Shown: positions 47,451 through 64,000, counted from the first letter of the stretch. The stretch is DNA of 64,000 bases from Clostridiales bacterium (GCA_022508345.1 JAFLVK010000001.1:164371-228370), one strand, 5' to 3'. Notes: generated from the letters alone by a model not told the origin. Made by a program: numbers and translations.

Positions 47451-47725
47451 GTCAGAAGCATTTTGACCCAAAATCCAATTTAGGAAATCTTAACCATTTT
47501 CCCTCTTTTTCTCGCTTAAAATACGACGAATTCGTGCTAAAACTAGGATTTTTTAACCACTTAACATCTTTTCTCGTTTGCATATCGGATTTTTCCCCAA
47601 TTTTCCCAAACACGGAACTGGAATCCTTTACATCCGGTGGAATATAACATATACCCCCATCGAATTCCCCAGATTAAAAAGTTGCAAAAATTACATTTCC
47701 CCAATTTTCAATAAATTGGGGAAAA
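47451..47725. repeat. Direct repeat copy A (~275 bp) at the core/island junction, 3' of module 1
   Basis: Aligns with 52978-53250. The core 47531-47725 versus 53058-53250 looks roughly 80 percent identical by eye (not computed). It contains TTTCCCCAATTT twice direct (47592-47603, 47696-47707) and once inverted (47713-47724). The last pair forms a 12-bp hairpin followed by a U-run on the minus strand. Confidence 0.8.
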
Positions 47726-47823: not shown

Positions 47824-49719
47824 TTATTTTGTTTTACCATACTGTTTCATCACATCTCTTAGACATATCTCATTCACTTTATCAAAAAAATTATGATCAA
47901 ACATGCTACCGACAAAATAGTTCTCTATACGCAGTTTATATCGCCCGATACTCATTTGATTTTCTTGATAAACTATTTTATCTCTATAATTAAAAATACA
48001 GAAATCACAATCATAGAATTTAAAGAGTTTATAGATATTTACTTCACCCTCGAACACCTTTTTTAGTTTGCGTATCTTAACATAATCTTCAAATAATGTC
48101 CCTCTGTCAAATGGCAAAATAAAATTGTCAAAATCCATGATATACACATCATCCTTTACAATAACACCATCTACTGTTCCAGAGTGTATAACAATGCTCT
48201 TTATACTATAAAATTTTTTGCTTTTAATTTTTATTCTTTTTTTCTCAAATGCTTCAAAAACGAAGTTCATATTGTTTTTGTAAAAAGAAACAATTCGATT
48301 CAACTGCTTTACATCATCTAAATATTTGACTGATTCTCTTGTTTCTAACTCATGTCCAGTTCTACTTTTACATTCGCAAAAAACGAAAGTATCATTCATA
48401 TAAAACACGGCATCACATTCATATTCTTCCCTATCTACATGATGATGCATCTGCACATACGGAGTTTTGGTTAAATCTAAAAATCTATATAAATTTTTTT
48501 CAAAATTATGTCCTTTGATATCAATATTAATATCTTGACTGTTAAACCTCGAAATGACAGACCTCGCTGCGTGAATCCATTTTGTAATAGAAAGACAAAT
48601 GGCATACTTATTGTTTATTGGAATAAATGGATAATCGTATAAATCTGTCGCACCTTTGCGTAGTATCATGTTATCAAAAACGATTGTCGCACTCTCTACA
48701 GGAATTCCATTTTTTACAAATATATTAATCCATTGCTTTTTAGTCTTACAATAAATGTGATTAGATAGAATTTTTGAAAAAGACACAATATCTTTGTTAG
48801 AGTTATTTTGGCTTATTTTATAAATAATCACATAGGCTTTAATCCAATATTTTATTTTAACACTTTTTATTTCGATGTCTGCACTTTCGCAGTAAAAGTG
48901 CTTATCCAATATTTTTTGACTAGTGTACTCCATCACTTTGGGAGTCAAATTTCTAAACGGTTTAATATAAAAATAATATTCATGAAGCGCGTTATTTTCA
49001 TAGATAAAACTCATTATTTTTTCTTTTATATACGGACTCGTGTACTGTGTGAGCCTTATCTTATCAAGTATAGATAGGTGAACTTCTTTATCATTTATTA
49101 TTTCTAAACCATAAATGTTCTTTTTCCAATAATTATATTTTTCATGCCACATGGAAACGTTGTATGAGTTAATTAAATACTCCATCACGCACCTTTTATA
49201 TTTAAATGGTGACGACAAAGCATCTGCGTCATTTAAACTACACATAAACTTACTATCGCTATACACTTTTTCATTGTATATTAAGGACTTTATTGCTTGT
49301 ATGGTAAGTTCCGCATTTTTTTCATATGCCGTGACGCTGTCTGCATGTTTTCCCTTGAAAAAGTCTTTTGCTTTAGCAGACTCGTATTTTTCAACATTAT
49401 ATGATCCCCAATAAAGTAAAAGCGGCAAAATTAAGTTGGGTGGGACAGCATCGATTTTGCTTTGCAACCTTGCGCATTCCTCAAATATAGCATTTATTAT
49501 GTTTATTTCCTCGAGATAAGCTATAGCTTCTTTTATTTGAAGTTTCTCCAAAATGTCATCAACCAACTTATTGAATTTATGAGTCCCACGAACATCAACT
49601 AAAAAGTCACAACTCTTTAATTCTTTAATATTCTCAAGGAAATTTCCATTTTGAATTAAGTTACATAACTCTTCCGTATCACTATTATCAATAATTCTAT
49701 CTACAGTTTTTTTATTCAT
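47824..49719 (-). CDS. Uncharacterised 631-aa protein with PD-(D/E)xK nuclease-like core
   Basis: AT-rich ORF with a 14-nt gap to the upstream gene. GHNFEKNLYRFL...EYECDAVFYMNDTFVFCECKS fits E...D...ExK. The N-terminal ~400 aa has no motif I recognise. Confidence 0.7.
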   Translation of the reverse strand: MNKKTVDRIIDNSDTEELCNLIQNGNFLENIKELKSCDFLVDVRGTHKFNKLVDDILEKLQIKEAIAYLEEINIINAIFEECARLQSKIDAVPPNLILPLLLYWGSYNVEKYESAKAKDFFKGKHADSVTAYEKNAELTIQAIKSLIYNEKVYSDSKFMCSLNDADALSSPFKYKRCVMEYLINSYNVSMWHEKYNYWKKNIYGLEIINDKEVHLSILDKIRLTQYTSPYIKEKIMSFIYENNALHEYYFYIKPFRNLTPKVMEYTSQKILDKHFYCESADIEIKSVKIKYWIKAYVIIYKISQNNSNKDIVSFSKILSNHIYCKTKKQWINIFVKNGIPVESATIVFDNMILRKGATDLYDYPFIPINNKYAICLSITKWIHAARSVISRFNSQDINIDIKGHNFEKNLYRFLDLTKTPYVQMHHHVDREEYECDAVFYMNDTFVFCECKSRTGHELETRESVKYLDDVKQLNRIVSFYKNNMNFVFEAFEKKRIKIKSKKFYSIKSIVIHSGTVDGVIVKDDVYIMDFDNFILPFDRGTLFEDYVKIRKLKKVFEGEVNIYKLFKFYDCDFCIFNYRDKIVYQENQMSIGRYKLRIENYFVGSMFDHNFFDKVNEICLRDVMKQYGKTK

Positions 49720-49733
49720 TCAATATACCCATA

Positions 49734-50987
49734 TTAATTTAAAGCTGAATTATGGACAATAATCGTCTTAGAACTAATGATTTCTCTCGGTTCTGCGAGT
49801 CTTACAATCTCATACTCAAAGCTGGCCACACCTATTTTTTGTTGATATACAGTGAGATTATTTTTCTTTGCAATTTGCATGAGTCGTTCTTTATTCTCTT
49901 TAGATATATCTTTCCCCATATAAATCCCTGTGGCAAAAGGAAACCATATTAAACCCGGCTCTTCTCCGCCGATTACAATTCTCCATTCTTGCTCATTCGA
50001 ATACTTCGGGTTTTTCATAAGCGTTTGCAGATGTAGTTTTGTTGCCATATCTGGATCATGGGAGGTGTTCTTTATTTCGAACAATGTATCATGGTATTGT
50101 AGAAATTGAAATTTATATGAGTTAAATTTCGGTCTTCGTTCCGTATAAAATACAGGTAATAATCCTTTCAACGCATATACTGAACTTTCAACATCCAGCA
50201 AATCGAATCTTATTCCTTGAGTAAAATCATATCTAATACAAAAGCCACCATAATTGTCCGCATATTCTTCCCACATTTTAGGGTTGTTATTAGTTTCAGT
50301 CAAACTGCAAACATATCTTGCTTTTCGATTTAAATCGATTGTAGACGAACACCATTCCTCACAGTGTGCCTTATACCAATCAAGCAATCCCTGTGCTCTG
50401 CCGCGCTGTGATATTTCTTGATCGAACAGCACAATTTTTTTTACAATTTTCTCCCGTTGTTCTATCGGATACTTTTTCTTTATATATTTTTGTGTTCTCT
50501 TAACATTTAATACTAAATCGTCATTATAACAATGTGCAAAAAATATGTTTCTTACTTCTTCTGGCGTTAATGAATTTTCGTCTTTAGAAAGGTTATCTTC
50601 ATTGTTGACATAAATGTAGGAGGCAAAAACAAACCATTTTGCAAGCCTTTTTATTTTACTTTTCGGCAGGTTCTTGATTGAAAAAGGTAGTCTACAATCG
50701 TATGGATCCATAAATTGTTCAGCCGAAGATACCCAAATACTGTTATCTTCTAACGCTTTGAAATTGTTCGCATTGCAACTTCGATATTTAAACAAACACT
50801 TCGGAACCGTCTTCAGGTGATCCAAAATATATCCTAAATCATCAAACTTTTTTCGCTGCTCGGATATTTTCAGCGAAGCCCAAATAGAATTCGGATCTTC
50901 TGACATTTCTCTAAAATACTCTTCAAGCAACATGTTCCTTATGTATCGTTCAGTTTTTTTGAGTCGATATTTTTGTTTTAACTTCAT
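49734..50987 (-). CDS. DUF2971-like protein
   Basis: CLFKYRSCNANNFKALEDNSIWVSSAEQFMDPYDCRLPF reproduces the DUF2971 N-terminal signature (L.KYRs...l....lw.s....fNDP.E), with a later EQEWRIVIG block. RBS is AAGGAGAA. Confidence 0.7.
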   Translation of the reverse strand: MKLKQKYRLKKTERYIRNMLLEEYFREMSEDPNSIWASLKISEQRKKFDDLGYILDHLKTVPKCLFKYRSCNANNFKALEDNSIWVSSAEQFMDPYDCRLPFSIKNLPKSKIKRLAKWFVFASYIYVNNEDNLSKDENSLTPEEVRNIFFAHCYNDDLVLNVKRTQKYIKKKYPIEQREKIVKKIVLFDQEISQRGRAQGLLDWYKAHCEEWCSSTIDLNRKARYVCSLTETNNNPKMWEEYADNYGGFCIRYDFTQGIRFDLLDVESSVYALKGLLPVFYTERRPKFNSYKFQFLQYHDTLFEIKNTSHDPDMATKLHLQTLMKNPKYSNEQEWRIVIGGEEPGLIWFPFATGIYMGKDISKENKERLMQIAKKNNLTVYQQKIGVASFEYEIVRLAEPREIISSKTIIVHNSALN

Positions 50988-51531: not shown

Positions 51532-52515
51532 TTATTTCTCATCTTGTTCGAGTACATATAACAGCATTGAGTATGCTGATGCCTTTTTAGCTTCTTTCTT
51601 TAGAGGCGCTGTCTCCCTAAAGCAAATATCATATTCTTCTATACTACATGTACAAGTCCAAAAAGTATTGTTGTGCACGTCCAATTGTTCTTCGAATAAA
51701 TACTCGGGCATCGAAAAATATTCCTTTTGCGCCAATTCCTGCAATTGATTTATTGCATTGTCTAACGATGGTTCGTCGATTTCATCTGCCATAGAGTACA
51801 TCCTCCCACTATCTTCTAGATAGCGATAAACTTGTTTTGCTGCCTCCATTCGGGCTTCATTCTTTGTCATTCCATCGCCTGAAAATTTGTAGCCATCAAC
51901 ATTTACTGTACAATGATAATAATCCCACGTAAACTTAAATCTATAATTCGGCGCCTTGCCAAATTCCTTTTGATGCCACTGTTGAACTAAAGCGACATAG
52001 TTATTGTCCTCAGTGAAACTATTTTGAATATAATGATCAATATCCAACATAAGACCGACTACTTCTTGTATGATTTCAAGATCCCAATTACAGTCCAGTG
52101 TTACAGCTCCTACGATAGCTTCAAATAAATCCTCTTTAACATGAGTATCCTCGGCAACATTTTGCTTAATATCGCCGTTTCCCATTATCAAATATTTTTG
52201 AAATCCGAACAACTCAGTTCTGCTGGCGAGCATTTTGCTTTTCACAAGCCGTTTCTTGATTTCGGTCAGCTTTCCTTCAGTGCGTTTTGAGATAAATTCT
52301 TCTTCCTCAGTAAATTCGCCATAATACTCTATAAGTGTTTTCATTACGGCAATATCAAGAGCTTTATCTCCAATAAACTCCAATACCTCATTATCTTCAC
52401 TTTCTGGATGCTCTTGCGAATAGGATTTTCTGATAAACGCCTGCTGTAACAACATTTTGTTATCAAACTGATATCCAATTTGTTTTTCAATTTCTCTTAG
52501 TTCTTTTTTTGTCAC
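51532..52515 (-). CDS. RNase III-like ribonuclease with two C-terminal dsRBD-like domains
   Basis: RNase III signature NEVLEFIGDKALD and second acidic cluster KEDLFEAIVGAVTLD. dsRBD-like 1 is NYRFKF...GDGMTKNEARMEAAKQVYRYL. dsRBD-like 2 is MPEYLFEE...TAPLKKEAKKASAYSMLLYVL. GTG start with GGAGG 10 nt upstream. Confidence 0.8.
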   Translation of the reverse strand: MTKKELREIEKQIGYQFDNKMLLQQAFIRKSYSQEHPESEDNEVLEFIGDKALDIAVMKTLIEYYGEFTEEEEFISKRTEGKLTEIKKRLVKSKMLASRTELFGFQKYLIMGNGDIKQNVAEDTHVKEDLFEAIVGAVTLDCNWDLEIIQEVVGLMLDIDHYIQNSFTEDNNYVALVQQWHQKEFGKAPNYRFKFTWDYYHCTVNVDGYKFSGDGMTKNEARMEAAKQVYRYLEDSGRMYSMADEIDEPSLDNAINQLQELAQKEYFSMPEYLFEEQLDVHNNTFWTCTCSIEEYDICFRETAPLKKEAKKASAYSMLLYVLEQDEK

Positions 52516-52736
52516 AAAAAAATACCTCCGTTGTAAAATTTACACGAAGGTATAATAATAGCCTAACGATAAGAGTATAGTATTCCCCTCTAAATTTCGT
52601 TAGGCACCATATATTAAAATAAATTACATAAATCATTTTTATTTGAATTAAGCCACTGCCAACCCAATTCAAATAACCCTATTTTATGTTCAGCATTTTA
52701 ATCTATTATACCCTCGGGTTAGATTTATTTTAGCAT

Positions 52737-52765
52737 CTCTTAACTAATTTGTCAATAGATGCATC
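52737..52765 (-). promoter_or_regulatory. Near-consensus promoter (TTGACA-17-TAAAAT) for module 1, giving a ~215-nt leader
   Basis: Minus strand reads TTGACA aattagttaagagatgc TAAAAT. The leader contains hairpins atttgaatt/aattcaaat (52643-52676) and gcctaacga/tcgttaggc (52561-52604). Confidence 0.55.
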
Positions 52766-52977
52766 AAAATTATATGTTGTTTTACGTAAATTCAAAACAA
52801 CTTGAACTAACGACATAATATTCATCATTGTTGCTTTTACATAATTAAGACTACCATTTACATAGCAATCGAACAATAAGTTCATTACCGTTCAATGCTG
52901 CCACTATGTTTTTTGTTGTTATGCAAAATTTCTTTAGAGATTTTGATACCATATTTTGTTATATATTGTCGAAAAAT

Positions 52978-53250
52978 GTCAGAAGCCTTGACATCATAAA
53001 TTCGATTTTGAATATTTTAACCATTTGACATCATTTTGCACAAAAAAGACGGTAAACTCGTGATAAAATTAGGATTTTTTAACCACCTTACCAATTTTCT
53101 CGTTTGCACAACGGATTTTTCCCCAATTTTCCCATATACGGAACAGGAATCCTTTACATCATTTAAGATGTAACATATACCTTATCGGATTTGCCAGATT
53201 AAAAAGCAGCAAAAAATAACTTTCCCCAATTTATTGAGAAATGGGGAAAG
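52978..53250. repeat. Direct repeat copy B (~273 bp), 3' of module 2 and upstream of module 1
   Basis: Aligns with 47451-47725. The hairpin tttccccaattt...aaatggggaaa (53221-53249) starts 7 nt after the stop of 53256-53852 and is followed by UUAUUUUUU on the minus strand. Confidence 0.8.
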
Positions 53251-53255
53251 TTTGA

Positions 53256-53852
53256 TTAGTTGTTATCTTCAATATTCTTATAATGTGCTTTGTATACCAC
53301 GGTATTACCCGTGACGTTATCCAACCGTACATTTCTAAATTTTTTATATCTAATTTTGTTATCTATTAATGTAAAAACTACGGTAACATAAGTCTCTGTC
53401 TCTCTTATGGCCGGAAAATTCGGAAATATAAAATAACCCATAATTGCCGAATATGCCGGAACTACAAGCGGCACCTGTAGTCGTAATGATTTACTATCCT
53501 GTGGTATGCCGCTTCTCTGACCAAACGTTAGATTAAACGGTGCGATATCATAAATTGAACCTACTGTTTCAGCATGATACTGCATATTTTCATATTCTAT
53601 GTAAATATCTGCAATTGTACCACCCACCGAAGAATTATTGTAAAAACTTAATCTTAAATCCACCAAAGTTTTAAAACCCACACCTTCAAATACAGCATCT
53701 GCATATGACAATGTGCCAAAATTCTTCTTTAGCCTAACACCTATTTTAGGTTTTGAATGCCGAAAGTGTATAATACAAGAAACGACTGCTGCAATTGCTG
53801 AAACTGCAGCACAAATCGAAGAAATCATTGCTATTAACTCTGACGTTTTCAT
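53256..53852 (-). CDS. N-terminally membrane-anchored 198-aa protein, unknown function (last gene of module 2)
   Basis: One strong TM helix (LIAMISSICAAVSAIAAVVSCII) followed by a beta-rich soluble domain. RBS AAGAGG. Confidence 0.65.
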   Translation of the reverse strand: MKTSELIAMISSICAAVSAIAAVVSCIIHFRHSKPKIGVRLKKNFGTLSYADAVFEGVGFKTLVDLRLSFYNNSSVGGTIADIYIEYENMQYHAETVGSIYDIAPFNLTFGQRSGIPQDSKSLRLQVPLVVPAYSAIMGYFIFPNFPAIRETETYVTVVFTLIDNKIRYKKFRNVRLDNVTGNTVVYKAHYKNIEDNN

Positions 53853-53903
53853 TTGTTACCTCTTAAAACGCGTAAAATCTGATTTATTAAACACATGCAC
53901 ATT

Positions 53904-55355
53904 TTAACTGTTATTGATTTCATCGTACTTTTTTAATAAAAAGTCACTAATTGTATTGTCGATTTTCCTTTGTTGCAATAATTCAATTATTTCCTCATCC
54001 GTTATATGTATTATCCAGCCACGCCCATCCTTTACTGTGTCCATTTCACATTGAATAAATTTTTGCGGATCATCCAAATATCTACAGCAAATAATACCGA
54101 ATTTTCCTCTATTTGCAGAAAATCTCCCTGACATTTGATCCAATTCTGGGTTTGCAATGTCTTTAGAATAATTCTTACACTCTACCATAATTAAACTGCA
54201 TGGTACATTATAGGTCGTACCTAAATAATGTAAGAATCCACTCTCAGCAATATTATTGAACACAATATCTATGCGCTTTCTGCCGTCATTTATCTCCTTC
54301 TCGATTTTGGGATGAGCAATATATGGATAGAAAAGCAACTCTAAAATTCCGCTAATCAGTCGATGATACCTTGTCGCATGCTCACTTCCCGGTGGTATAG
54401 ATTTAAGCGCCTCTATAAGATTATCGATAATTTCTTCTATATCTTCATCGCTTATATCATCTAATTCTCCATATGATATCTTTTGAATAATCTCATTTTT
54501 AAATTTGCTCAGCACATCAGGATTTTCTTTTGTAAAACGTGATAACCAATTTTTTGTTAAAAATTCGCCACGACTTTCGTAATCTGCTACAATGTCTTTC
54601 TTACAAACCTTAGCATTTTTTAGTGATCCATTTTTGTCGTATGTTTTTCGAACCAAATGCGTGTCCTCTTTTAAGTTTTTCTCTTTTAAAAATTCAAGCA
54701 CATATTGATTCAAGAATTCCTGTGCGTTGTAATATTTTGCGTCAGAAACTAAATTTTTAGGAAACAATAGATATCTTTTCCCATCTATTACCAGTGTTTC
54801 GTGGTGTCCTCTATCCCAACGTGTAGCAGTTTTATTCCAATAGTAGCCAACCTCAGCATTAGTTAACTTTATACCCAATAACTCACACTGTTCCTTAGTG
54901 TACTTAATAAGTGGATATTTTATAATATTAGCAACCATATCAGAAACCTTGTCCTTATCCACACCTTCGACGAACAATCTTAAATCTTCAATATGTTCTG
55001 CTACCCCATCATTTATTGCGCAACTTTTCTTGATTGCTTCAAAAATCGTTCGCGCGTTTACTCGTCCAACGCCTTTACCCGCCGGCTTGCCACGACTCAT
55101 TCCTAAGCATATCTCATTAACTTCTCCCAAATGATTAAAAAGCTCAAACGCACGTTCTTCATCATATTGTAATAAGTATAAAAATCTATTAAAAAAGGTT
55201 TCTATGTACTCATTACATTCAGCTAAAAAAGCATCTTCCTTCCGGGAAATATAATAAGGATCGAAAAACATATATGTGTCGAGTTCTATTTCATAGTCAT
55301 AAAAATCCAATTCCAGTTGAGACTTCTTAAGCCCTAATTTCTCACTTATTTTCAT
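53904..55355 (-). CDS. 483-aa protein with novel N-terminal region and C-terminal restriction-endonuclease-fold (Mrr/NERD-like) domain
   Basis: C-terminus EHATRYHRLISGILE...GRKRIDIVFNN...SLIMVECKNYSKDIANPELDQMSGRF fits E...D...ExK. Start set at ATG 55355 after GGAGGAATT. Confidence 0.7.
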   Translation of the reverse strand: MKISEKLGLKKSQLELDFYDYEIELDTYMFFDPYYISRKEDAFLAECNEYIETFFNRFLYLLQYDEERAFELFNHLGEVNEICLGMSRGKPAGKGVGRVNARTIFEAIKKSCAINDGVAEHIEDLRLFVEGVDKDKVSDMVANIIKYPLIKYTKEQCELLGIKLTNAEVGYYWNKTATRWDRGHHETLVIDGKRYLLFPKNLVSDAKYYNAQEFLNQYVLEFLKEKNLKEDTHLVRKTYDKNGSLKNAKVCKKDIVADYESRGEFLTKNWLSRFTKENPDVLSKFKNEIIQKISYGELDDISDEDIEEIIDNLIEALKSIPPGSEHATRYHRLISGILELLFYPYIAHPKIEKEINDGRKRIDIVFNNIAESGFLHYLGTTYNVPCSLIMVECKNYSKDIANPELDQMSGRFSANRGKFGIICCRYLDDPQKFIQCEMDTVKDGRGWIIHITDEEIIELLQQRKIDNTISDFLLKKYDEINNS

Positions 55356-55368
55356 AATTCCTCCTAAA

Positions 55369-57171
55369 TTATAATATATCAGCAATAGTAATTTTTATAT
55401 ATTCGCGCAAATACTTAAATGGGAATGGCACAACTGTTAACTGTCCGTTGCGAACAAATGTAACCGACATTAATGGCAGCAAATCATCAAACATAACAGT
55501 TGCATTTTTGTGCGCTTCTATTAATCTAATATTAGCTGCTCGATTAATTTTTCTCTTCATTCCTTCTCCGATTTCGCCGACAAAATAATATTGTATGCCA
55601 TCAATTTTAAACATCTTAATATCTAAGCACGCTGATAGTAGTTTTTCTCGCATTGCTTTACCACGCAGCTTTGTATTTCCGCTTTCAAGTTCTGCTTTGA
55701 TACTATCAATCATCGGAATAGTAAACCAATCGGTATCTTTAATAATGTTAATTTCATTTTTCGAGTTTTTTATAATACCGTTAATCTTTTCCGATCTTAA
55801 TTTGGCATCCTCAAATATTTCAACACATTCGCTATATTCTGTTAAGTTAAACAAATCTAACTTCGTTTCTCTAAATTCAAATGTACCATCTGGATGTATA
55901 TTCATAAAGAAAGATCTATCCTCATGCGTCACGCCAAAAGAAATGTTTTCATTGTAACCAAGCTTGTCCCATTCAAACAAAGAAATGCGTTTTGTCTTGA
56001 TGTCGTCCTTAATTAACAATTCGTTAACTACCGTTTTAATCGCAAATTCAGCACAGTCGACGAAATCTTCCAATGTGATATGCTGAATAACCGCATCGTT
56101 ATATTCTTCATAAGCATCCTCATTTCCGCCATAATACTCGGCATTATGAATAACGCATATATTTAAACTTTGTTTGTTGATTTTTTTGCTTAAGTTTGCA
56201 TTTATACTGTATGTATCATATAAAAGTTGTTGGATTTCCGAACAAAATCTTTTTGAGTATTCGTCAGATATTTTATCAACAATGTTTATTGACTTGGAAG
56301 TCAAAATCGTCTCGATACGTTTTTTATTTTCTCGTTTTTCCACATGTGAATAATCAAGTGAAGAATACTCCTCTATCTTTTCGAGCTTTATTTGCGCATA
56401 TTTTGCATGCTTGCCATTAAACTCATTTAAAACTGAATACAAAACGCCTAGCTTACAACAATTAAATTTGTCGATGTCTTCCAAATTTAAAAATGGAATT
56501 TCAATCTTTTTGCCTTCTATTTGTCTTAGTATAAAGGCACCACCTTTATCATCTTTCAACTTGCGTTTTAATGTATAATGTGCTGAAATGACATATTGTG
56601 GATATTCGTCAAATTTTCGCTTTTCGAACACTATATGATTGCGTAATTTAATTGATGTAAAAGTATGAACATTGAACAATAAATGAAAGTCTTTCGTTAT
56701 TCTAATGTCTAGGCAAGGAATTTGCCATATGATTTCATTAGTTTTTTCCTTAGATTTTTTCAACCATTGGGGATGAAAACAGTATAAGTGTCCAGTTAAG
56801 TTATTAAACTTCAAGTTTGTACTCTCAAAATTTCCCATGCCATTTAACAATAATTGCAACGAGATATAATGAGGAAGTTGAGAAAAATTGAGTTGTTGTA
56901 TAGACAAGTTTTCAGATCCTTCGCAACTGTTTAGGATTAGGAGTAATGAATGTCTGTTTTCTTCATTATGTTTCATTAATACATATAACGATTTGCCTTT
57001 TTCAAAATACAATGAATAAACAGAATTTCCAAGGGATGGTGCATCTAATATAAATGCACCACTCCGAATATAATTCTCAGATGTTGATATTTGAAAAACA
57101 TCAAATTGTTTATTTAATTCTGTTATATTCAAAGAGTAGTTTACTCTATTAGTACTAATTGGAAAACTCAT
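55369..57171 (-). CDS. 600-aa protein, possible catalytically inactive Argonaute/PIWI-like protein
   Basis: No catalytic motif found. The C-terminal TVVPFPFKYLREYIK resembles the PIWI C-terminal [ST]VP.P..YA motif. LNICVIHN...YEEYNDAVIQHI resembles a MID strand-helix. The gene overlaps the helicase gene by 17 nt and has AAGGAG 8 nt upstream of its ATG. The fold assignment is inference only. Confidence 0.6.
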   Translation of the reverse strand: MSFPISTNRVNYSLNITELNKQFDVFQISTSENYIRSGAFILDAPSLGNSVYSLYFEKGKSLYVLMKHNEENRHSLLLILNSCEGSENLSIQQLNFSQLPHYISLQLLLNGMGNFESTNLKFNNLTGHLYCFHPQWLKKSKEKTNEIIWQIPCLDIRITKDFHLLFNVHTFTSIKLRNHIVFEKRKFDEYPQYVISAHYTLKRKLKDDKGGAFILRQIEGKKIEIPFLNLEDIDKFNCCKLGVLYSVLNEFNGKHAKYAQIKLEKIEEYSSLDYSHVEKRENKKRIETILTSKSINIVDKISDEYSKRFCSEIQQLLYDTYSINANLSKKINKQSLNICVIHNAEYYGGNEDAYEEYNDAVIQHITLEDFVDCAEFAIKTVVNELLIKDDIKTKRISLFEWDKLGYNENISFGVTHEDRSFFMNIHPDGTFEFRETKLDLFNLTEYSECVEIFEDAKLRSEKINGIIKNSKNEINIIKDTDWFTIPMIDSIKAELESGNTKLRGKAMREKLLSACLDIKMFKIDGIQYYFVGEIGEGMKRKINRAANIRLIEAHKNATVMFDDLLPLMSVTFVRNGQLTVVPFPFKYLREYIKITIADIL

Positions 57172-60100
57172 GAATCAAACTCCTTATTTCTCTAAATGCC
57201 TTTACACTGACCTGCGGTTTTTTATAACCGAAAAACAAACATGGAACATCTACAATTGTGACTTCGCCGGAACTCCGAACAATTGGACGTTCTTCTTTGG
57301 TCAAAATGTTAATAGTCAAAACGCATTTGCATCCACATTTTTTTGCTTTACAAATTATTTTTGATCTCATTTTTTCTTTATCTATAGTCATAGATTCATG
57401 CCAGTGTTTAAAATCAACATATATAGGTGCGTCTTTAACCTTAAAATCAAAACACTCAAATAAGTCATTATCGTTTATTTCATCTAGGTCTATGTCAAAA
57501 TAACGCTTTAAGAGATACCTGCCAACGAATTCACCCAATGCGCCTTTATATATGTTGTTATATAAGGCTGGGGACACAATAAAATTACCCGGTTTAAATG
57601 TGGTTGCATAGTGTTTTTCATTAAATTGATCTTTTACACCTTCTATTTCCATTAAAACATTTAGTCGCGCATCGTGGGCTGACACTTCATAGTTAAAATG
57701 ACTTCTTTGCTGGAATGAAACTAATATGTTATTAAAATCTGATTCTTGCTGGTAAAATATGCGATCTTGTACTTGCGGCAATTTTACATACAGCTGATTT
57801 ATCATAAAATTTTTATCCATATCAATTTCATTTCTAGAGAATGTTGGATTTCGTAACACCATTTCTCGCATTTCCTTCCAATCCTTCATGCTATCATCAG
57901 TCCAATCCTCTCGCAAAATGTTCTGTATAAATTTATTAACACGAACAGATAGTAAAGAGGCCGTATTTTCGGCGATATTGCTATTGTTGATACATGATGT
58001 TGATTGCACCTTACTCATCAGTGCCAAAAACTCAGGATTAAACAAATTACTATTAATAATTGTTTTATCAATATTTTCATGCAATCTACTATCTGCTAGA
58101 ATATAAATTTTTCTTTTCTTCTGATTGGTTCTGCAGATACGACCTATTGCTTGAATTATGGTCCGTGTGCAAAGCAGTTTAACATCCTGCAGGTCATATA
58201 AATTTTTAACCCATTCTGAACGTGCATGACCAGTCATGTAGCATCTAAAAGCCTTTTTTATATGGGAGAACGCTTCCGTCATTGAAAGCTGTCCATTCTG
58301 CTGTAAAAACTCAACATGGAAAATGTATTTGGCAAAGTCCTCCTCTATCAAATGTTCGTCTAGTCGAACCAATAAATTTGTTGGTTTGTCTAAATATATA
58401 GCATCAAAATCTTTCTCGTTTCTAGAATCAAAATCATTTACACCAATTAGCCGTTTTCTATCACCTTGCGGTATAGGATATTGTAAGTTTTGTCCAGCTC
58501 CAATAGTTTGATAAACGGAGATGACGAATAATCTTTCCCCTTTTGCTAAACGCGAAATAATATGTTCTTTTCGAGCATCGTATTCATCTCCATCCAACTG
58601 AATAACTGTATCCTCTTGAAAAACCTCTTTTTTGTTTTCTTCCCATATGTGTTTGAAAATTTTCAACAAAAAATCAATATCAAGCATTGCATTATTTTTT
58701 CGAGGATGTCTGGTTAATACACATAAGAATGATTGAATATCATCATGTTGAACGAAAAATTTAAAAGCGGATGCTACTCGACAGTATCTTTTCTTATCGT
58801 AATTATTACTGTCATCGGAGAACATTATTTCTAAATTTTCATAAACATCATAAACGCGTTCTGTCTTCAAAACTTCTTGCCATGCAGATAGACCATAATT
58901 TGCCTCTGAATTTTCACCAATGATGGACACATCAATATCTATATTGTCATAGCCTTTTGTAGCAATTGCATATTGATCGCTTAACCGCTTCAGATCTTCT
59001 TGCGAGACCTTGCAAAATGCAGTCTTCATTTTTGCTTGTAAATAATCCATGTCATAATTTCCTATATTCGTTGGAATTGTAGCCGTTGCTGAAATACCAA
59101 TTACCTTGGCACGCTCGCAAATTTTCAACAATATTTTTTCTGGAGTATTTTGAAAAGAATACATCATTATTTTAGACTGCATATCATGAAAGGTGTCGTT
59201 CTCAAATGCGTAATATCTGAAACCCCGTTCATAAAACGACAGGTCATAGTTTGCTCCCTCAATGTTGGTAGACCTTTTGGGCGATGCTGATAGTATTTGT
59301 AGTGTAAGGTATTCTATCGAATCATTTGACAATCTGAATTCTGACAAAACCGATCTTATTGCTGATTCCATCGAAAAATCGTCTTCGCCAGTTTTATGTC
59401 TCTCCCGCTTCGTTTCCAGATAATTTATTGCAAGAATGCTGACGCCAATTTGAAAATACGTAATAAATCCGCGCAATTTGCCAAGCATAACATGGATATT
59501 TTGCGAATCATGCTGCGGCTTTTTATCCGCAAACTTTATTTCATTTAGTCTTAACTTTTCATTACTGTATGTATAGATGAAAGATTTATTACCATTCAAT
59601 ATCGAATGAAATTGGTGATCTTGAAATAAAAAATTCTTATTTTGATCTTCTGCTTCCACACTAGTTCTATGACTAAATTTTAAAGAAAAATCTTTGTATA
59701 ATACCTCTGCTTTTGACCTTATATCATCAATAATACCATCAAGTGACTGATCGGCGAATCTACTAGCTTGTCTCTGTCGCGATGCGGTTGTTAAGACAGA
59801 GGGAAATTCAGTGGTTTGCAAACCAGAATAAATTTCTCTAAACAATTCAATATAATCAATTTTATCTCGTAACCCATTTTCTATAATATTGTTTAAAATC
59901 GTTGCCTTTGTTGCGTCAAACTCATCTATAAATATTACTGCATCTTTAATTATGTCTGAATTGTAAAACATATATGACGGTTCAACAATGGTTGAATTTC
60001 TAGAAAGAAATTTATCCATGCTCATAAAAATAATTTGTTTGCTTTGTGTAAATACAGCAGGATATAACCTGCCTAACCATTGCCAACGCTCACTTGTTTT

Positions 60101-60625
60101 TATGGCATAAAGCTTATCTTTAACGGATGTAAATTCTTTATTAAGATACGCTTGTATTAAGCCTCGGAATGCGGGCTCTGTTTTTTCGCGAAGATTTTTC
60201 TCGATGGTCTCCACTAATTGTTTAGTCGTATTATCAGATTTTTGTCTTTTGATAAAAAGAAGATCTTGTTTAAGTGCTCTATATTCGTCTGTTTTTGTTA
60301 TTTCAGATGGCATACTTTTTTCTAATTTGGCATTCCAGTTGGTTAATACAGTATCAATATTGGAATCCAAAAAGACAAATTTTTCATCAAAAAGCACTTG
60401 TTCATTACGTCTAGCAAACCTTTCTTTTAATTCATCAATCGGCAGGTTCTTTTTTTGCGTGGTAATAAAAAACACTTTTTTCTTATCAAACTTATGCGAC
60501 AGCACTGCATCACAAATATAGTCTAAAACAGAATGTGTTTTACCAAATCCTGTTGGCATATCTATTAGTAATAACCCGTTCGATTTGTCATTATTCTCGC
60601 AGTATTTTTTTATGATTTGATACAT
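57155..60625 (-). CDS. SF2 (DinG/DdmD-like) helicase with C-terminal PD-(D/E)xK nuclease-like domain
   Basis: Motif I LIDMPTGFGKTH, II VIFIDEFDAT, III VIGISATATIP, V-like QTIGAGQNL and VI IIQAIGRICR. The C-terminus is GALGEFVGRYLL...ECFDFKV...IYVDFKHW. Start set at ATG 60625 after GAGGTG. Confidence 0.85.
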   Translation of the reverse strand: MYQIIKKYCENNDKSNGLLLIDMPTGFGKTHSVLDYICDAVLSHKFDKKKVFFITTQKKNLPIDELKERFARRNEQVLFDEKFVFLDSNIDTVLTNWNAKLEKSMPSEITKTDEYRALKQDLLFIKRQKSDNTTKQLVETIEKNLREKTEPAFRGLIQAYLNKEFTSVKDKLYAIKTSERWQWLGRLYPAVFTQSKQIIFMSMDKFLSRNSTIVEPSYMFYNSDIIKDAVIFIDEFDATKATILNNIIENGLRDKIDYIELFREIYSGLQTTEFPSVLTTASRQRQASRFADQSLDGIIDDIRSKAEVLYKDFSLKFSHRTSVEAEDQNKNFLFQDHQFHSILNGNKSFIYTYSNEKLRLNEIKFADKKPQHDSQNIHVMLGKLRGFITYFQIGVSILAINYLETKRERHKTGEDDFSMESAIRSVLSEFRLSNDSIEYLTLQILSASPKRSTNIEGANYDLSFYERGFRYYAFENDTFHDMQSKIMMYSFQNTPEKILLKICERAKVIGISATATIPTNIGNYDMDYLQAKMKTAFCKVSQEDLKRLSDQYAIATKGYDNIDIDVSIIGENSEANYGLSAWQEVLKTERVYDVYENLEIMFSDDSNNYDKKRYCRVASAFKFFVQHDDIQSFLCVLTRHPRKNNAMLDIDFLLKIFKHIWEENKKEVFQEDTVIQLDGDEYDARKEHIISRLAKGERLFVISVYQTIGAGQNLQYPIPQGDRKRLIGVNDFDSRNEKDFDAIYLDKPTNLLVRLDEHLIEEDFAKYIFHVEFLQQNGQLSMTEAFSHIKKAFRCYMTGHARSEWVKNLYDLQDVKLLCTRTIIQAIGRICRTNQKKRKIYILADSRLHENIDKTIINSNLFNPEFLALMSKVQSTSCINNSNIAENTASLLSVRVNKFIQNILREDWTDDSMKDWKEMREMVLRNPTFSRNEIDMDKNFMINQLYVKLPQVQDRIFYQQESDFNNILVSFQQRSHFNYEVSAHDARLNVLMEIEGVKDQFNEKHYATTFKPGNFIVSPALYNNIYKGALGEFVGRYLLKRYFDIDLDEINDNDLFECFDFKVKDAPIYVDFKHWHESMTIDKEKMRSKIICKAKKCGCKCVLTINILTKEERPIVRSSGEVTIVDVPCLFFGYKKPQVSVKAFREIRSLIHEFSN

Positions 60626-60785
60626 AAAACACACCTCATCTTATTTGTACAAAAATTGTTCTACCATCGATTTGGGTTTCCTCTCATAAGAGTGAAAAAT
60701 AATTATCAGGAATTCCCTTCGATAAAAGTAGATATATAATATACCTATACAAATATATTTTTGTTAAGCACAATTAAAAATATTA

Positions 60786-60815
60786 TAAAAAGCTATTGCT
60801 CAATTACAATAGCTT
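60786..60815 (-). terminator. Rho-independent terminator ending module 3, upstream of module 2
   Basis: Minus sense aagctattg-taattgag-caatagctt followed by TTTTTAT. It begins about 15 nt after the stop at 60830. Confidence 0.7.
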
Positions 60816-60829
60816 CATATTGATATCGC

Positions 60830-61597
60830 TTAGGATAAAGTTTTATTTTTTATATGATAGGCTATATTACGTGCCTCGCAAAACTCTATTACTTGGTGAG
60901 CTGCATTGTTGAAAAACTCTTTGTGCTGTTTATATGTTGTTGCCACCTTGTTGTAGTGAATACGCCCAAAGATTATTTTGTCAACAAAGCTTATTTCTTC
61001 TAATATTTGTGCCAAATCTTGCTCGCACATATTAGGTGTAGGATACGGCTCAACGCTTACCCATGTCCTAAACCCTGCATCGTGTAACGCACGTAGAGCG
61101 GCTATTCTTTCAGGATACGGTGCTGTGTTACACTCATATTGCACGCGAAAATGATCATCCAAGGATACCAAGGTAATACCATATTCATTTTCATGAGAAT
61201 AGTTGACGAGTTCAATTGGCAAAAGACCTTTTGTCAATACAGTGCACTTTATACCGTTATCATTTAGTGTACCTATTATTTGTAGACTTAAATTTTTTAC
61301 TTCGTCCTGACCATACATAAAAGGATCTGTCATAAAGGACAATTGGACCGATTTAATTTTATTCTTGTATTTAGGTATTTCCTTGTTCAGTATTTCAAGA
61401 GCATTCCCGACAAGCTTGGGCTCACACCAATCTTCATAAGTTTTAACTTGACCAAATCTCTTCTTCATCATCATCGCATAACAAGGATATTTACAACCAT
61501 GTGAACAGCCTTGAACATGATTTATTGTATAATCCCCATATTCCACACCTGTTTTATATAAAAGAGATTTTCGGTTGATCTTTTTCACTTTTTCCAC
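60830..61597 (-). CDS. Radical-SAM-like (SplB/COG1533-like) protein with atypical three-Cys motif CX3CX3C
   Basis: NHVQGCSHGCKYPCYAM resembles the NPY.GC.HGC.YCYA cluster motif but has one extra residue. Downstream blocks FMTDPF, VLTKGLLP, RIAALRALHDAGFRTWVSVEPYP follow the COG1533 layout. 13-nt overlap with the TcmP-like gene. Confidence 0.7.
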   Translation of the reverse strand: MEKVKKINRKSLLYKTGVEYGDYTINHVQGCSHGCKYPCYAMMMKKRFGQVKTYEDWCEPKLVGNALEILNKEIPKYKNKIKSVQLSFMTDPFMYGQDEVKNLSLQIIGTLNDNGIKCTVLTKGLLPIELVNYSHENEYGITLVSLDDHFRVQYECNTAPYPERIAALRALHDAGFRTWVSVEPYPTPNMCEQDLAQILEEISFVDKIIFGRIHYNKVATTYKQHKEFFNNAAHQVIEFCEARNIAYHIKNKTLS

Positions 61598-62786
61598 CTC
61601 ACAGAAACAGTTTTCCCGCGTCCTTCAGACATAAAAGTTGTTGCCTTTCCATTGTTTGTGGTTTGAGGATTGCGAATTACTTCGATGATTCCAGCTTTTT
61701 CCCATGTTTTTAATATGTCTTTGATGTGATTCGTAGCGCAGATTGCTCCATATTCAACAAAAAAGTTCGCCAAAGCCTCATGTAGTGAAATTGCTGTTGT
61801 ATATTTAGAAAAATGGCGCCTTGCTTTTTCTTTGATGTCATCTATGTCTATTATCTCATTGTCAAAGGTCTCTTCAAATAGCGACATTTGTCCATAATTT
61901 TGAATATCTCTAAGGTTTTGCCAACGATTATAAATATTGTCTACCATCAACAGACATCCATCTTTGTGATTAGTGGCATGAACCATTCTGTACTTTGGTC
62001 TTTGTCCTGGTTTTATTCTAAGTGGCAAATTCAAAACATATTTGTAACTATGACTTAGTCTTCTACAATATTCGTCGGCAAATGTTTTCTCTGCTTCATA
62101 GCCGTCGATTTTTGACGCTTTATAATCTTTAATAATTTCTTGCCAATAATCTCCACCTGCAATATCGTTAAGGTCTTGTATTGACTTTTCGGAAGCGACA
62201 AATCTACTGGGTTCATATTCGACTAGGTCATCAAACAATTCCTTATCATCGAATCGTGTTCCTAAAGCATTACAAGCCTCTCTGATAAAACCGAATGAGT
62301 TCAAATTTATTAGCAACTCAATTGAATTAAAGCCACTTCTTGCAAAACCGTCAAACTGCCAACAATTAAGTGCTTTTATACCATATGGATCAATGTATAA
62401 GAACACATTACAATTTCTTTTTTTTTCAAGATGTCGAGAATATTATCCTCATATTTACCCGAATAGATATTTACATACTGATATCCGCACAAATTTTCGC
62501 GTAAATCATCAGCATAATTTAGATCAATAAAATTGGTGCTGATATCAACAGCATCCATAGTTGTGCTACTCACGCAATTTTGTATTATATCTAACGCAAT
62601 CAGTGGCGAACCAGGTTTGCCATCGTCAAACTTACCCTTTCCGGCAAAGCAATCGACGTAAACCAACGGTTTGTATGTATGTAAAATTTTTTGAACGTAC
62701 GGTCTAAAATAACAACCAAGTAGTTCGTCCTTTACCTCAGACCATGCCTTCTTCTCTTTGAAAAAATCATCATTATTTTTCGACAC
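61585..62786 (-). pseudogene. TcmP-like (three-Cys-motif partner protein, methyltransferase-fold-like) gene split by a frameshift at an A9 tract
   Basis: The N-fragment 62376-62786 (KKAWSEVKDELLGCYFRPYV...LVYVDCFAGKGKF...GSPLIAL) and C-fragment 61585-62406 (FLYIDPYGIKAL...) are adjacent frames. The C-fragment frame stays open upstream through EKKRNCNV into the run of nine T (62418-62426, A9 on the coding strand). A 1-nt change there fuses them into one protein of about 400 aa. Confidence 0.7.
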
Positions 62787-62808: not shown

Positions 62809-63267
62809 CTATTTGTCTAGTACAACTACTCCTTTTTCAGTTTCCAGGAGTATCCCTTCTAGCATGCCGCCTTGATTTATGTGGCCGACAACAATTTCGT
62901 CCGCAAGTTCGATAACTTTGAGGTTGCGAATCCGAGCACGTTCGCGAGTTACAATGGGGATATCATCATCGAAGGGTGATACAATCAACATTTGCCCGCT
63001 TTCCACTGCTGCACGGTATTTGGCAGGACACTTGACAAAGATACTTCTTGCCAACACCATTACAATTGGACTTGTCCCCTGCAACAAAATATCCAAGATG
63101 TCCATTTCCAATCTGCTTTGAAAGCCGGAAATTACACACCTCTTTTGCTTTTTAATTTCACTTACCCAGTCATAAGATGCCAGAACAGATTTGCTACTGT
63201 ATTTATCCGAGCAAAGAAAAGCTATCTTTTGAGTATTTAATAGTTGTATATTACCTATTGATTTCAT
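62809..63267 (-). CDS. DprA/Smf-like (SLOG superfamily) Rossmann-fold protein
   Basis: KIAFLCSDKYSSKSVLASYDWV...RCVISGFQSRLEMDILDILL...SPIVMVLARSI...GQMLIVSPF follows the DprA core layout (ivGsR...vvSG.A.GiD...tiaVla.g...llsp). Confidence 0.6.
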   Translation of the reverse strand: MKSIGNIQLLNTQKIAFLCSDKYSSKSVLASYDWVSEIKKQKRCVISGFQSRLEMDILDILLQGTSPIVMVLARSIFVKCPAKYRAAVESGQMLIVSPFDDDIPIVTRERARIRNLKVIELADEIVVGHINQGGMLEGILLETEKGVVVLDK

Positions 63268-63292
63268 TTCGTTAAATAGCTACTTAACACCG

Positions 63293-64000
63293 TTAATCGT
63301 TTTCGTCTTCAACGCCGAGCCGATATTTGATATCGTAGTTGATAATATAATCCAATTCTTCCTGTGTAAAGCCATATGCTGTCGCCAAGTTTATATCAAT
63401 TAAATCCATAGTGTTTTTACTGAGCGCCTTATTGTATGTAATAGTCTCGTTTGCACCACGTGTGACACTGTTTATAGTGTAGTGTTTTGCATTAGAAAGC
63501 AACTCGCTTTCCATGGTATTTGATAATTCTACAATAGAGGCTACATCAATGGAATAATAGTTCATTCTAAAACCAAATAGCATGTAGTCTTTAAAATTGA
63601 AGTGATCATAATTTACACAGTAATACCACCAGAAAATGTTAGAGTTCAGCGCAGCACTTATTACTCTTGAATCACATTTAACTTCAAAACTTTTTGACTT
63701 GTTACTCAAAGACTCTGTTTGAAAAGGAGAATTGAGAATAGTTATCCAATATCCACCACCTGCTGTTCTATAATAAACGGCATTTTCAACATTGTGTTTA
63801 TCTAGATAGAGGTTAATAGGTCTGTGCCTATATAATTTATCTTCGATAGCCAACTCGATTTTATTGCCTAGTTTTAAGAAGTGGTCAACTTTTGCTTGAT
63901 TCGATTTAATATATGCTACTCCCTCAAATAAAAAACGACGTGTATGAGAATACCATCTTTTTACACCCGATGTATAAAAAGCGCGTTGATAACCATGTAT
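63293..64000 (-). CDS. C-terminal (TaqI_C-like specificity) part of an N6-adenine DNA methyltransferase or type IIG restriction-modification enzyme; 5' end beyond the window
   Basis: My translation shows the frame is open from 64000 (IHGYQRAFYTSGVKRWY...) through the ORF-track segment. IFWWYYCVNYDHFNFKDY and the tail LATAYGFTQEELDYIINYDIKYR are typical of the TaqI-class C-terminal target-recognition domain. The catalytic part is not visible. Confidence 0.6.
   Translation of the reverse strand: MHGYQRAFYTSGVKRWYSHTRRFLFEGVAYIKSNQAKVDHFLKLGNKIELAIEDKLYRHRPINLYLDKHNVENAVYYRTAGGGYWITILNSPFQTESLSNKSKSFEVKCDSRVISAALNSNIFWWYYCVNYDHFNFKDYMLFGFRMNYYSIDVASIVELSNTMESELLSNAKHYTINSVTRGANETITYNKALSKNTMDLIDINLATAYGFTQEELDYIINYDIKYRLGVEDEND

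Follow-up and report, generated by a model that had tools for sequence, protein, structure and literature searches.

Two described systems offer the nearest comparisons for the locus analyzed here. The pPIWI-RE three-gene module reportedly combines a DinG-like helicase, a pPIWI-RE protein and a restriction endonuclease (REase), an arrangement that Burroughs et al. are said to have presented in 2013. The other, the plasmid-elimination system DdmDE, is exemplified by V. cholerae (VcDdmDE) and L. casei (LcDdmDE; PDB 9IX4, 9IW3 and 9IXM), having been described in Vibrionaceae and Lactobacillaceae (10.1101/2024.10.09.617351). It is encoded by an overlapping gene pair with D upstream of E, in which DdmD unites a superfamily 2 (SF2) helicase, Insertion and Arch regions and a PD-(D/E)xK nuclease, and DdmE has a prokaryotic Argonaute (pAgo) fold (N-L1-PAZ-L2-MID-PIWI) without the catalytic DEDX tetrad, which would make it a sensor and not a slicer. 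The present study concerns a four-gene locus on the minus strand, at positions 53256-60625 of a 64,000-nucleotide (nt) stretch of DNA from a Clostridiales bacterium (GCA_022508345.1, JAFLVK010000001.1:164371-228370); this whole stretch is termed the window, and its coordinates are used throughout. The original prediction, made from the sequence of the window, took the four genes to be one operon encoding an expanded relative of DdmDE and pPIWI-RE systems with an extra REase protein and a membrane component. Our analysis instead favors, at a probability of roughly 0.85, a composite stretch of a low-GC defense island in which three evolutionarily independent modules, namely a DdmDE pair, gene 3 and gene 4, share an orientation. 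This reading is based on conservation of the gene pair by itself, the unlinked occurrence of genes 3 and 4 elsewhere, a cassette swap in a sister island and the island context. The components of the locus, with protein lengths in amino acids (aa), are as follows.

57155-60625, minus strand: gene 1, 1156 aa from an ATG start (an upstream GTG start at 60634 is possible); DdmD homologue in which an SF2/DinG-like helicase containing Insertion and Arch regions is joined to a C-terminal PD-(D/E)xK nuclease.
55369-57171, minus strand: gene 2, 600 aa; DdmE homologue, pAgo-like, a predicted guide-dependent sensor that is compact over the PIWI insertion region.
53904-55355, minus strand: gene 3, 483 aa, with AGGAGG 5' of its ATG start; N-terminal domain (residues ~1-335) without a recognized fold and C-terminal PD-(D/E)xK domain (E339, D363, E392-x-K394).
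53256-53852, minus strand: gene 4, 198 aa; rare single-pass membrane protein with a transmembrane segment at residues ~6-29 followed by a basic stretch (hydropathy).
60626-60785, minus strand: putative promoter region and 5' leader; sigma-70-like hexamers lie at 60809-60782 and 60767-60738, and gene 1 is preceded by a GAGGTG ribosome-binding site.
~60786-60815, minus strand: terminator of the upstream radical-SAM gene, delimiting the unit on its 5' side; -14.1 kcal/mol hairpin (z -4.2), then a T-run.
53221-53249, minus strand: intrinsic terminator 3' of gene 4; hairpin of -16.3 kcal/mol, z -5.6, then a T-run.

Gene 1 shares the full-length architecture of DdmD. It matches the PADLOC DdmD model over nearly its whole length (E-value 1e-47). 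With phmmer, its residues 6-1123 align with residues 11-1150 of L. casei DdmD (9ix4) at E 4.7e-66, and V. cholerae DdmD is matched at E 7e-47. The SF2 motifs and the C-terminal nuclease core to which the original prediction drew attention are present and conserved: among 43 aligned members of the family, the helicase residues (Walker A K29, the DEFD motif at 234-237 with D234/E235, and S512-A513-T514), the QAxGRxxR arginine finger motif (R829/R832) and the nuclease residues E1032, D1060 and D1071-x-K1073 are all invariant. The insert of ~230 aa between motifs I and II, likewise noticed at the outset, is the counterpart of the LcDdmD Insertion domain, which comprises residues 91-220 and is involved in dimerization (10.1101/2024.10.09.617351).

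Gene 2 is only ~16-18% identical to the solved DdmE proteins (Foldseek). Its C-terminus matches the PADLOC DdmE model at an E-value of 1.7e-8, and a profile built from 15 sequences matches L. casei DdmE (9iw3; E 2.9e-28, with both the N-terminal and the C-terminal parts covered) and V. cholerae DdmE (E 1.6e-9). The C-terminal segment TVVPFPFKYLREY, which had been read as PIWI-like, is matched in alignment by TVVPYPVKYLREY (L. casei DdmE) and TVTPYPFKHLREY (V. cholerae DdmE), the three having a P(F/Y)P(F/V)K(Y/H)LREY motif in common. In an AlphaFold2 model of moderate confidence (predicted local distance difference test, pLDDT, 67; predicted template modeling score, pTM, 0.68), the predicted protein shares the pAgo fold of DdmE. 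Foldseek comparison of this model with the PDB returned DdmE cryo-EM structures as the six best matches (E 9.5e-25 to 1.5e-13, TM-scores ~0.5-0.6), among them 9ixm_B (E 9.5e-25, TM-score 0.59) and 9ezy_B (E 6.8e-21), with AfPiwi and MjAgo following weakly. The invariant K388 aligns with K395 of LcDdmE and Y354 with Y339, two residues that contact the 5'-phosphate of the guide (10.1101/2024.10.09.617351).

The main departure of gene 2 from characterized DdmE proteins lies in its length, 600 aa against 687-715 aa. The difference of ~100 aa falls mainly in the segment matching the DdmD-contacting PIWI insertion domain, where residues ~444-529 of gene 2 provide ~86 aa in place of the ~180 aa of L. 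casei DdmE (Lc 455-634). As judged from the alignment, so short an insertion segment in the clostridial clade would imply a different or reduced DdmD-DdmE interface.

The pairing of the two genes is conserved well beyond the window. A set of 51 gene 2 loci was collected from reference genomes, mostly of Clostridia with a few of Bacteroidota. In 47 of these loci gene 2 directly follows gene 1, with an overlap of ~14 nt, and the contigs of the remaining four end at the start of gene 2. Nothing besides genes 1 and 2 is conserved across these 51 loci, whose downstream content varies; neither gene 3 nor gene 4 was found at any of them (0/51). In the window itself the overlap measures 17 nt, and an AAGGAG sequence is placed 8 nt upstream of the gene 2 ATG. 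Because the PADLOC hidden Markov models, the matches to solved DdmD and DdmE proteins of L. casei and V. cholerae, the Foldseek results and the invariant motifs all agree, genes 1 and 2 are identified at the level of sequence and predicted structure as true DdmD and DdmE homologues that make up a clostridial DdmDE system, outside the Vibrionaceae and Lactobacillaceae of the earlier description. A literature search on how DdmDE is distributed among taxa yielded nothing of use. Homology, fold and synteny thus uphold the original assignment of this helicase-nuclease and pAgo, the latter predicted to be of the inactive type, to the DdmDE layout. By analogy with V. cholerae and L. casei, DdmE carrying a short DNA guide would recognize complementary plasmid DNA and pass the displaced strand to an auto-inhibited DdmD dimer; the dimer would then dissociate into an active monomeric 5'-3' helicase-nuclease, whose PD-(D/E)xK domain would degrade the plasmid.

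The likeness to the pPIWI-RE module, by comparison, is superficial and consists of helicase, PIWI-like and REase-fold proteins encoded in a row. None of the pPIWI_RE Pfam models (RNaseH_pPIWI_RE, MID_pPIWI_RE, pPIWI_RE_REase and related models) matches gene 2 or gene 3 at E <= 1, a threshold at which gene 2 yields a single spurious match, to CBM9_2; the suggested pPIWI-RE kinship is therefore not supported. The two arrangements also differ in that the PIWI protein here has its nuclease partner fused to the helicase, as in DdmD, and in that gene 3, which encodes the separate REase protein, accompanies genes 1 and 2 at none of the 144 gene 3 loci described below and at none of the 51 gene 2 loci.

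Gene 3 is a free-standing member of the DUF8370 family. It matches the two PADLOC models for component A of the candidate system PDC-M36 (PDLC04597, E 4.4e-39; PDLC04598, E 2.1e-18) and, over its full length, phrog_27295 (E 6e-75), and the Pfam annotation PF28123 (DUF8370) is carried by a protein identical to gene 3 and by 120 of the 120 homologues listed. Gene 3 thus matches all three names under which PDC-M36A is represented. Scans of the four proteins of the locus against NCBIfam and a Pfam set lacking PF28123 gave sub-threshold matches only. The DUF8370 family comprises >931 clusters from Bacillota, Pseudomonadota, Bacteroidota, Patescibacteria and other phyla; a literature search retrieved no paper on PDC-M36 or DUF8370, and the family is without a characterized member.

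The C-terminal third of gene 3 (~140 aa) is a PD-(D/E)xK domain, in which D363 and E392-C393-K394 are invariant and E339 nearly invariant among 22 aligned homologues. In the N-terminal region, clusters of acidic residues are invariant and a glycine-rich loop (S87, G93, G95, G97) is conserved. The AlphaFold2 model is confident (pLDDT 86, pTM 0.86), and Foldseek searches of the PDB and BFVD with it gave no match below E 1e-3. The weak matches obtained (E 0.02-0.1) concern the C-terminus only and include FokI, EcoT38I, Nt.BspD6I, Cap4 and phage 'restriction endonucleases', and a gene 3 profile searched against PDB sequences produced matches at chance level only. Gene 3 therefore has the PD-(D/E)xK core in common with Type IIS/Mrr-like REases and the Cap4 nuclease; it differs from them in that these matches are not significant and that its N-terminal ~335 aa are without a counterpart, no recognizable relative or known fold having been matched to this part. 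The original description of gene 3 as a novel N-terminus joined to a REase core is in keeping with these results. Gene 3 is most likely an autonomous, single-gene candidate defense nuclease, in which the N-terminal domain would sense or bind a foreign-DNA or infection cue and thereby gate the C-terminal DNase.

The neighborhoods of gene 3 homologues were surveyed in two systematic scans, covering 80 genome and 64 metagenome loci (144 in total) and genes within 10 kb of each homologue. Genes 1, 2 and 4 were absent from the vicinity of the gene 3 homologue at all of them (0/80 and 0/64). BLAST clustering, together with PADLOC and Pfam scans of 149 immediate neighbors, revealed no recurrent partner; the commonest neighbor was a phage integrase (7/149), and neighbors on the same strand within 100 nt were found upstream in 20 of 74 cases and downstream in 12 of 75. 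A partner 'B' component, PDC-M36B, has no match among the genes of the window and is not within the 25 most frequent PADLOC families of the 149 neighbors. The idea, prompted by the L136 locus described below, that this 'B' component might be a DdmD-like helicase was considered and rejected, since solo DdmD-like proteins match the DdmD model only and six of their loci (L201-L206) are devoid of DUF8370.

Closer relatives of gene 3, with 58-69% identity (L207-L211), occur in several settings. One follows a Dnd cluster (dndB-E; L207), and one stands alone (L209). At L208:6145-12429, the DUF8370 gene sits between Type III mod (614 aa) and res (984 aa) genes with gaps of 11 and 25 nt, and at L210 and L211 the relative is directly upstream of Type I hsdM/hsdS. 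A further relative, 69% identical, directly follows a 1132-aa DdmD-like gene (L136:4478-7876) with no DdmE between them. The DdmD-like protein of L136 is 30% identical to gene 1 with all motifs conserved and belongs, with L201-L206, to a 'solo' DdmD-like clade of 1128-1145 aa (PADLOC DdmD E 1e-25 to 1e-32), in which the catalytic motifs are likewise all conserved. Neither DUF8370 nor DdmE is detectable beside the DdmD-like genes of L201-L206, so the adjacency seen in L136 is not conserved.

Gene 4 was correctly recognized as a single-pass membrane protein, having one hydrophobic helix at residues ~6-29. Its family is marked in alignment by an invariant VPLxVPAYSAxxGYFxFPxFP motif, and the C-terminal domain bearing this motif is probably cytoplasmic. 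Relatives are rare: five were found among 5.8 billion clusters, and searches of GTDB representative genomes and of IMG/VR found none. In two of their loci (L132 and L133) the gene 4 relative has an HTH_3 repressor and an integrase of phage type as neighbors, in L212 an unrelated gene of opposite orientation precedes it, and none of the loci has a gene 1, 2 or 3 relative nearby. In L213, DNA homology to the window spans 53864-53118 and thus starts inside the gap between genes 3 and 4; nothing resembling gene 3 lies upstream of the gene 4 relative there. What the sequence supports is membrane anchoring only, and gene 4 may be described as a rare, putatively membrane-anchored accessory protein that elsewhere resides in mobile elements.

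The L213 homology also bears on a direct repeat of ~207 nt, whose two copies in the window (53044-53249 and 47518-47724) are 77-83% identical and 5.5 kb apart. The former includes the gene 4 terminator, the latter lies at the edge of the low-GC island, and the 3' end of L213 matches both. By sequence, the gene 4 module seems to have this repeat as its native 3' flank; it is also possible that the repeat serves as a recombination or insertion site. Separately, the repeat pair is seen to flank a block containing a 631-aa open reading frame (ORF), a DUF2971 gene and an RNase III-like gene.

Two related islands show what may occupy the positions downstream of gene 2. In L134, gene 2 is 97% identical, and the DNA is 94.9% identical to window positions 61587-55399, a region that takes in the radical-SAM gene as well as gene 1 and gene 2 and stops ~30 nt short of the gene 2 stop codon. 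Beyond it, a 1591-aa Avs4-like STAND protein (L134:11840-16615; PADLOC Avs4 E 8e-38) with a REase-type N-terminus is encoded where the window has genes 3 and 4. This comparison illustrates cleanly how a cassette can be exchanged precisely at a defense gene's 3' end and, on the evidence of sequence alignment, shows that genes 3 and 4 occupy a slot for exchangeable cargo 3' of DdmE. All four genes recur on one other contig only, L135; as its sequence is 100% identical to that of the window over 10.8 kb, it does not count as an independent observation.

The ORFs and spacing originally reported for the locus were reproduced: downstream of the gene 1/gene 2 overlap, gaps of 13 nt and 51 nt separate gene 2 from gene 3 and gene 3 from gene 4. 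The two terminators said to bracket the operon also withstood scrutiny, each folding into a hairpin that none of 200 shuffled sequences equaled. A generic consensus terminator scan overlooked both, one having a 13-nt loop and the other too few GC pairs, and they were recovered by inspection of the sequence and folding. Within the unit, neither gap folds better than shuffled sequence. Given bracketing terminators and unstructured internal gaps, the four genes are probably one transcription unit. The promoter candidates upstream of gene 1 come from a consensus scan only, and such matches are no commoner in this region than in shuffled sequence, making them weak evidence.

Considerations of this kind weigh to some degree against the composite reading. 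The tight spacing, the lack of an internal terminator and the single bracketing pair probably entail co-expression, which makes functional interplay of the four genes conceivable, and the two independent DdmD-DUF8370 adjacencies, in the window and in L136, slightly exceed the expectation for random placement. The strongest form of such interplay would be integration into a single expanded DdmDE/pPIWI-RE-like system with the REase-tailed and membrane proteins as obligate additional parts. It would account for the operon-like arrangement and for the reappearance of all four genes in L135, but that contig is a copy of the same island, no co-occurrence was found in 195 independent loci (80 + 64 + 51), the L134 sister island has an Avs4-like gene instead of genes 3 and 4, and pPIWI-RE Pfam matches are lacking. 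We regard this explanation as very improbable. Recurrence of the four genes in other genomes, on which the original prediction had placed weight, is confined to the L135 copy. Of the proposed expanded DdmDE relative, the DdmDE pair stands, and genes 3 and 4 as added components fall away in light of the 195 loci and the L134 swap.

An even smaller unit, in which genes 3 and 4 constitute a two-gene system with the membrane protein as an effector replacing the PADLOC 'B' component, is hardly credible. PDC-M36 is nominally a multi-gene candidate, and no terminator interrupts the 51-nt gap; against this, five gene 4 relatives compare with >931 clusters for gene 3, no gene 4 relative adjoins a DUF8370 gene, gene 3 relatives of 69% identity lack a gene 4-like ORF downstream, and the L213 homology to gene 4 begins within the very gap that would join the two genes. 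A looser association is conceivable for gene 3 alone, namely opportunistic cooperation, whereby an autonomous DUF8370 gene enters DNA-targeting defense operons and its product acts there as a back-up or synergistic nuclease, comparable to PrrC in Type I restriction-modification loci. The presence of DUF8370 in Type III (L208), Type I (L210/L211) and Dnd (L207) contexts would fit this scenario, as would its position downstream of a DdmD-like gene in L136 and of DdmE in the window. Most DUF8370 homologues, however, are not tightly coupled to any neighbor, their neighbors are mostly integrases or unrelated genes, and defense genes cluster in islands anyway, so that we consider such cooperation unlikely for the present locus. 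The L136 adjacency and the operon-embedded relatives of L208 and L210 nevertheless keep the idea of a hitch-hiking back-up nuclease alive at low probability. Stated for the family as a whole, DUF8370/PDC-M36A would be a phylum-spanning single-gene defense nuclease, with a sensor domain of unmatched fold, residing preferentially in or beside DNA-targeting immune operons (DdmDE, a solo DdmD-like gene, Type III mod-res, Type I hsdMS and Dnd) as a back-up or synergistic effector, which might fire upon inhibition of the primary system or use DNA ends that the primary system generates; this broader proposal is doubtful, if a little less so than its application to the window. Taken together, the locus is a DdmDE of known kind accompanied by unrelated neighbors rather than an expanded DdmDE/pPIWI-RE system.

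The surroundings are consistent with the composite reading of the locus. The island, with a GC content of 0.31-0.34 against 0.45-0.50 elsewhere, extends from ~47.4 kb to the end of the window and contains the following further features, among them members of other defense systems or candidates.

47824-49719: 631-aa ORF at the island edge, with no match in Pfam, PADLOC or PHROGs.
49734-50987: DUF2971 protein, matching the single-gene candidate defense system PDC-S31 (E 3e-33).
Within 51532-53255: free-standing RNase III protein with a double-stranded RNA-binding domain, 327 aa, within the defense island.
60830-61597: intact radical-SAM/DUF5131 gene; PDC-M30A/B consists of GMT-wHTH and radical SAM/DUF5131.
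61585-62786: PDC-M30A-like (GMT-wHTH) gene, present as two overlapping ORFs (136 and 273 aa).
62809-64000: 152-aa PsyrA/DprA-like gene; Type IIG (MmeI-like) restriction-methyltransferase, C-terminal part only.

The PDC-M30A-like gene is split in the same way in L135 and is a single 368-aa gene in L134; the window copy may be a frameshifted pseudogene. Since the Type IIG gene runs off the end of the window, the island extends past it. In the 51532-53255 region, the RNase III-like gene is preceded by a stretch of ~740 nt without an ORF longer than 61 aa. This stretch contains a near-consensus promoter-like site at 52755-52727 (11/12 matches, extended TG) and a 41-nt inverted repeat at 52609-52706. 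Rfam and tRNA scans of the island found nothing.

Several implications follow for these families and their hosts. Tight, operon-like packing within a defense island does not by itself make a multi-component system. DUF8370, as a large family (>900 clusters from many phyla, with a PHROG) with a confident structural model and an unmatched N-terminal fold, is a reasonable target for defense screens. The clostridial DdmDE clade, with its compact 600-aa DdmE, comprises >450 protein clusters and widens the known range of DdmDE to gut anaerobes, where it could matter for plasmid transformability.

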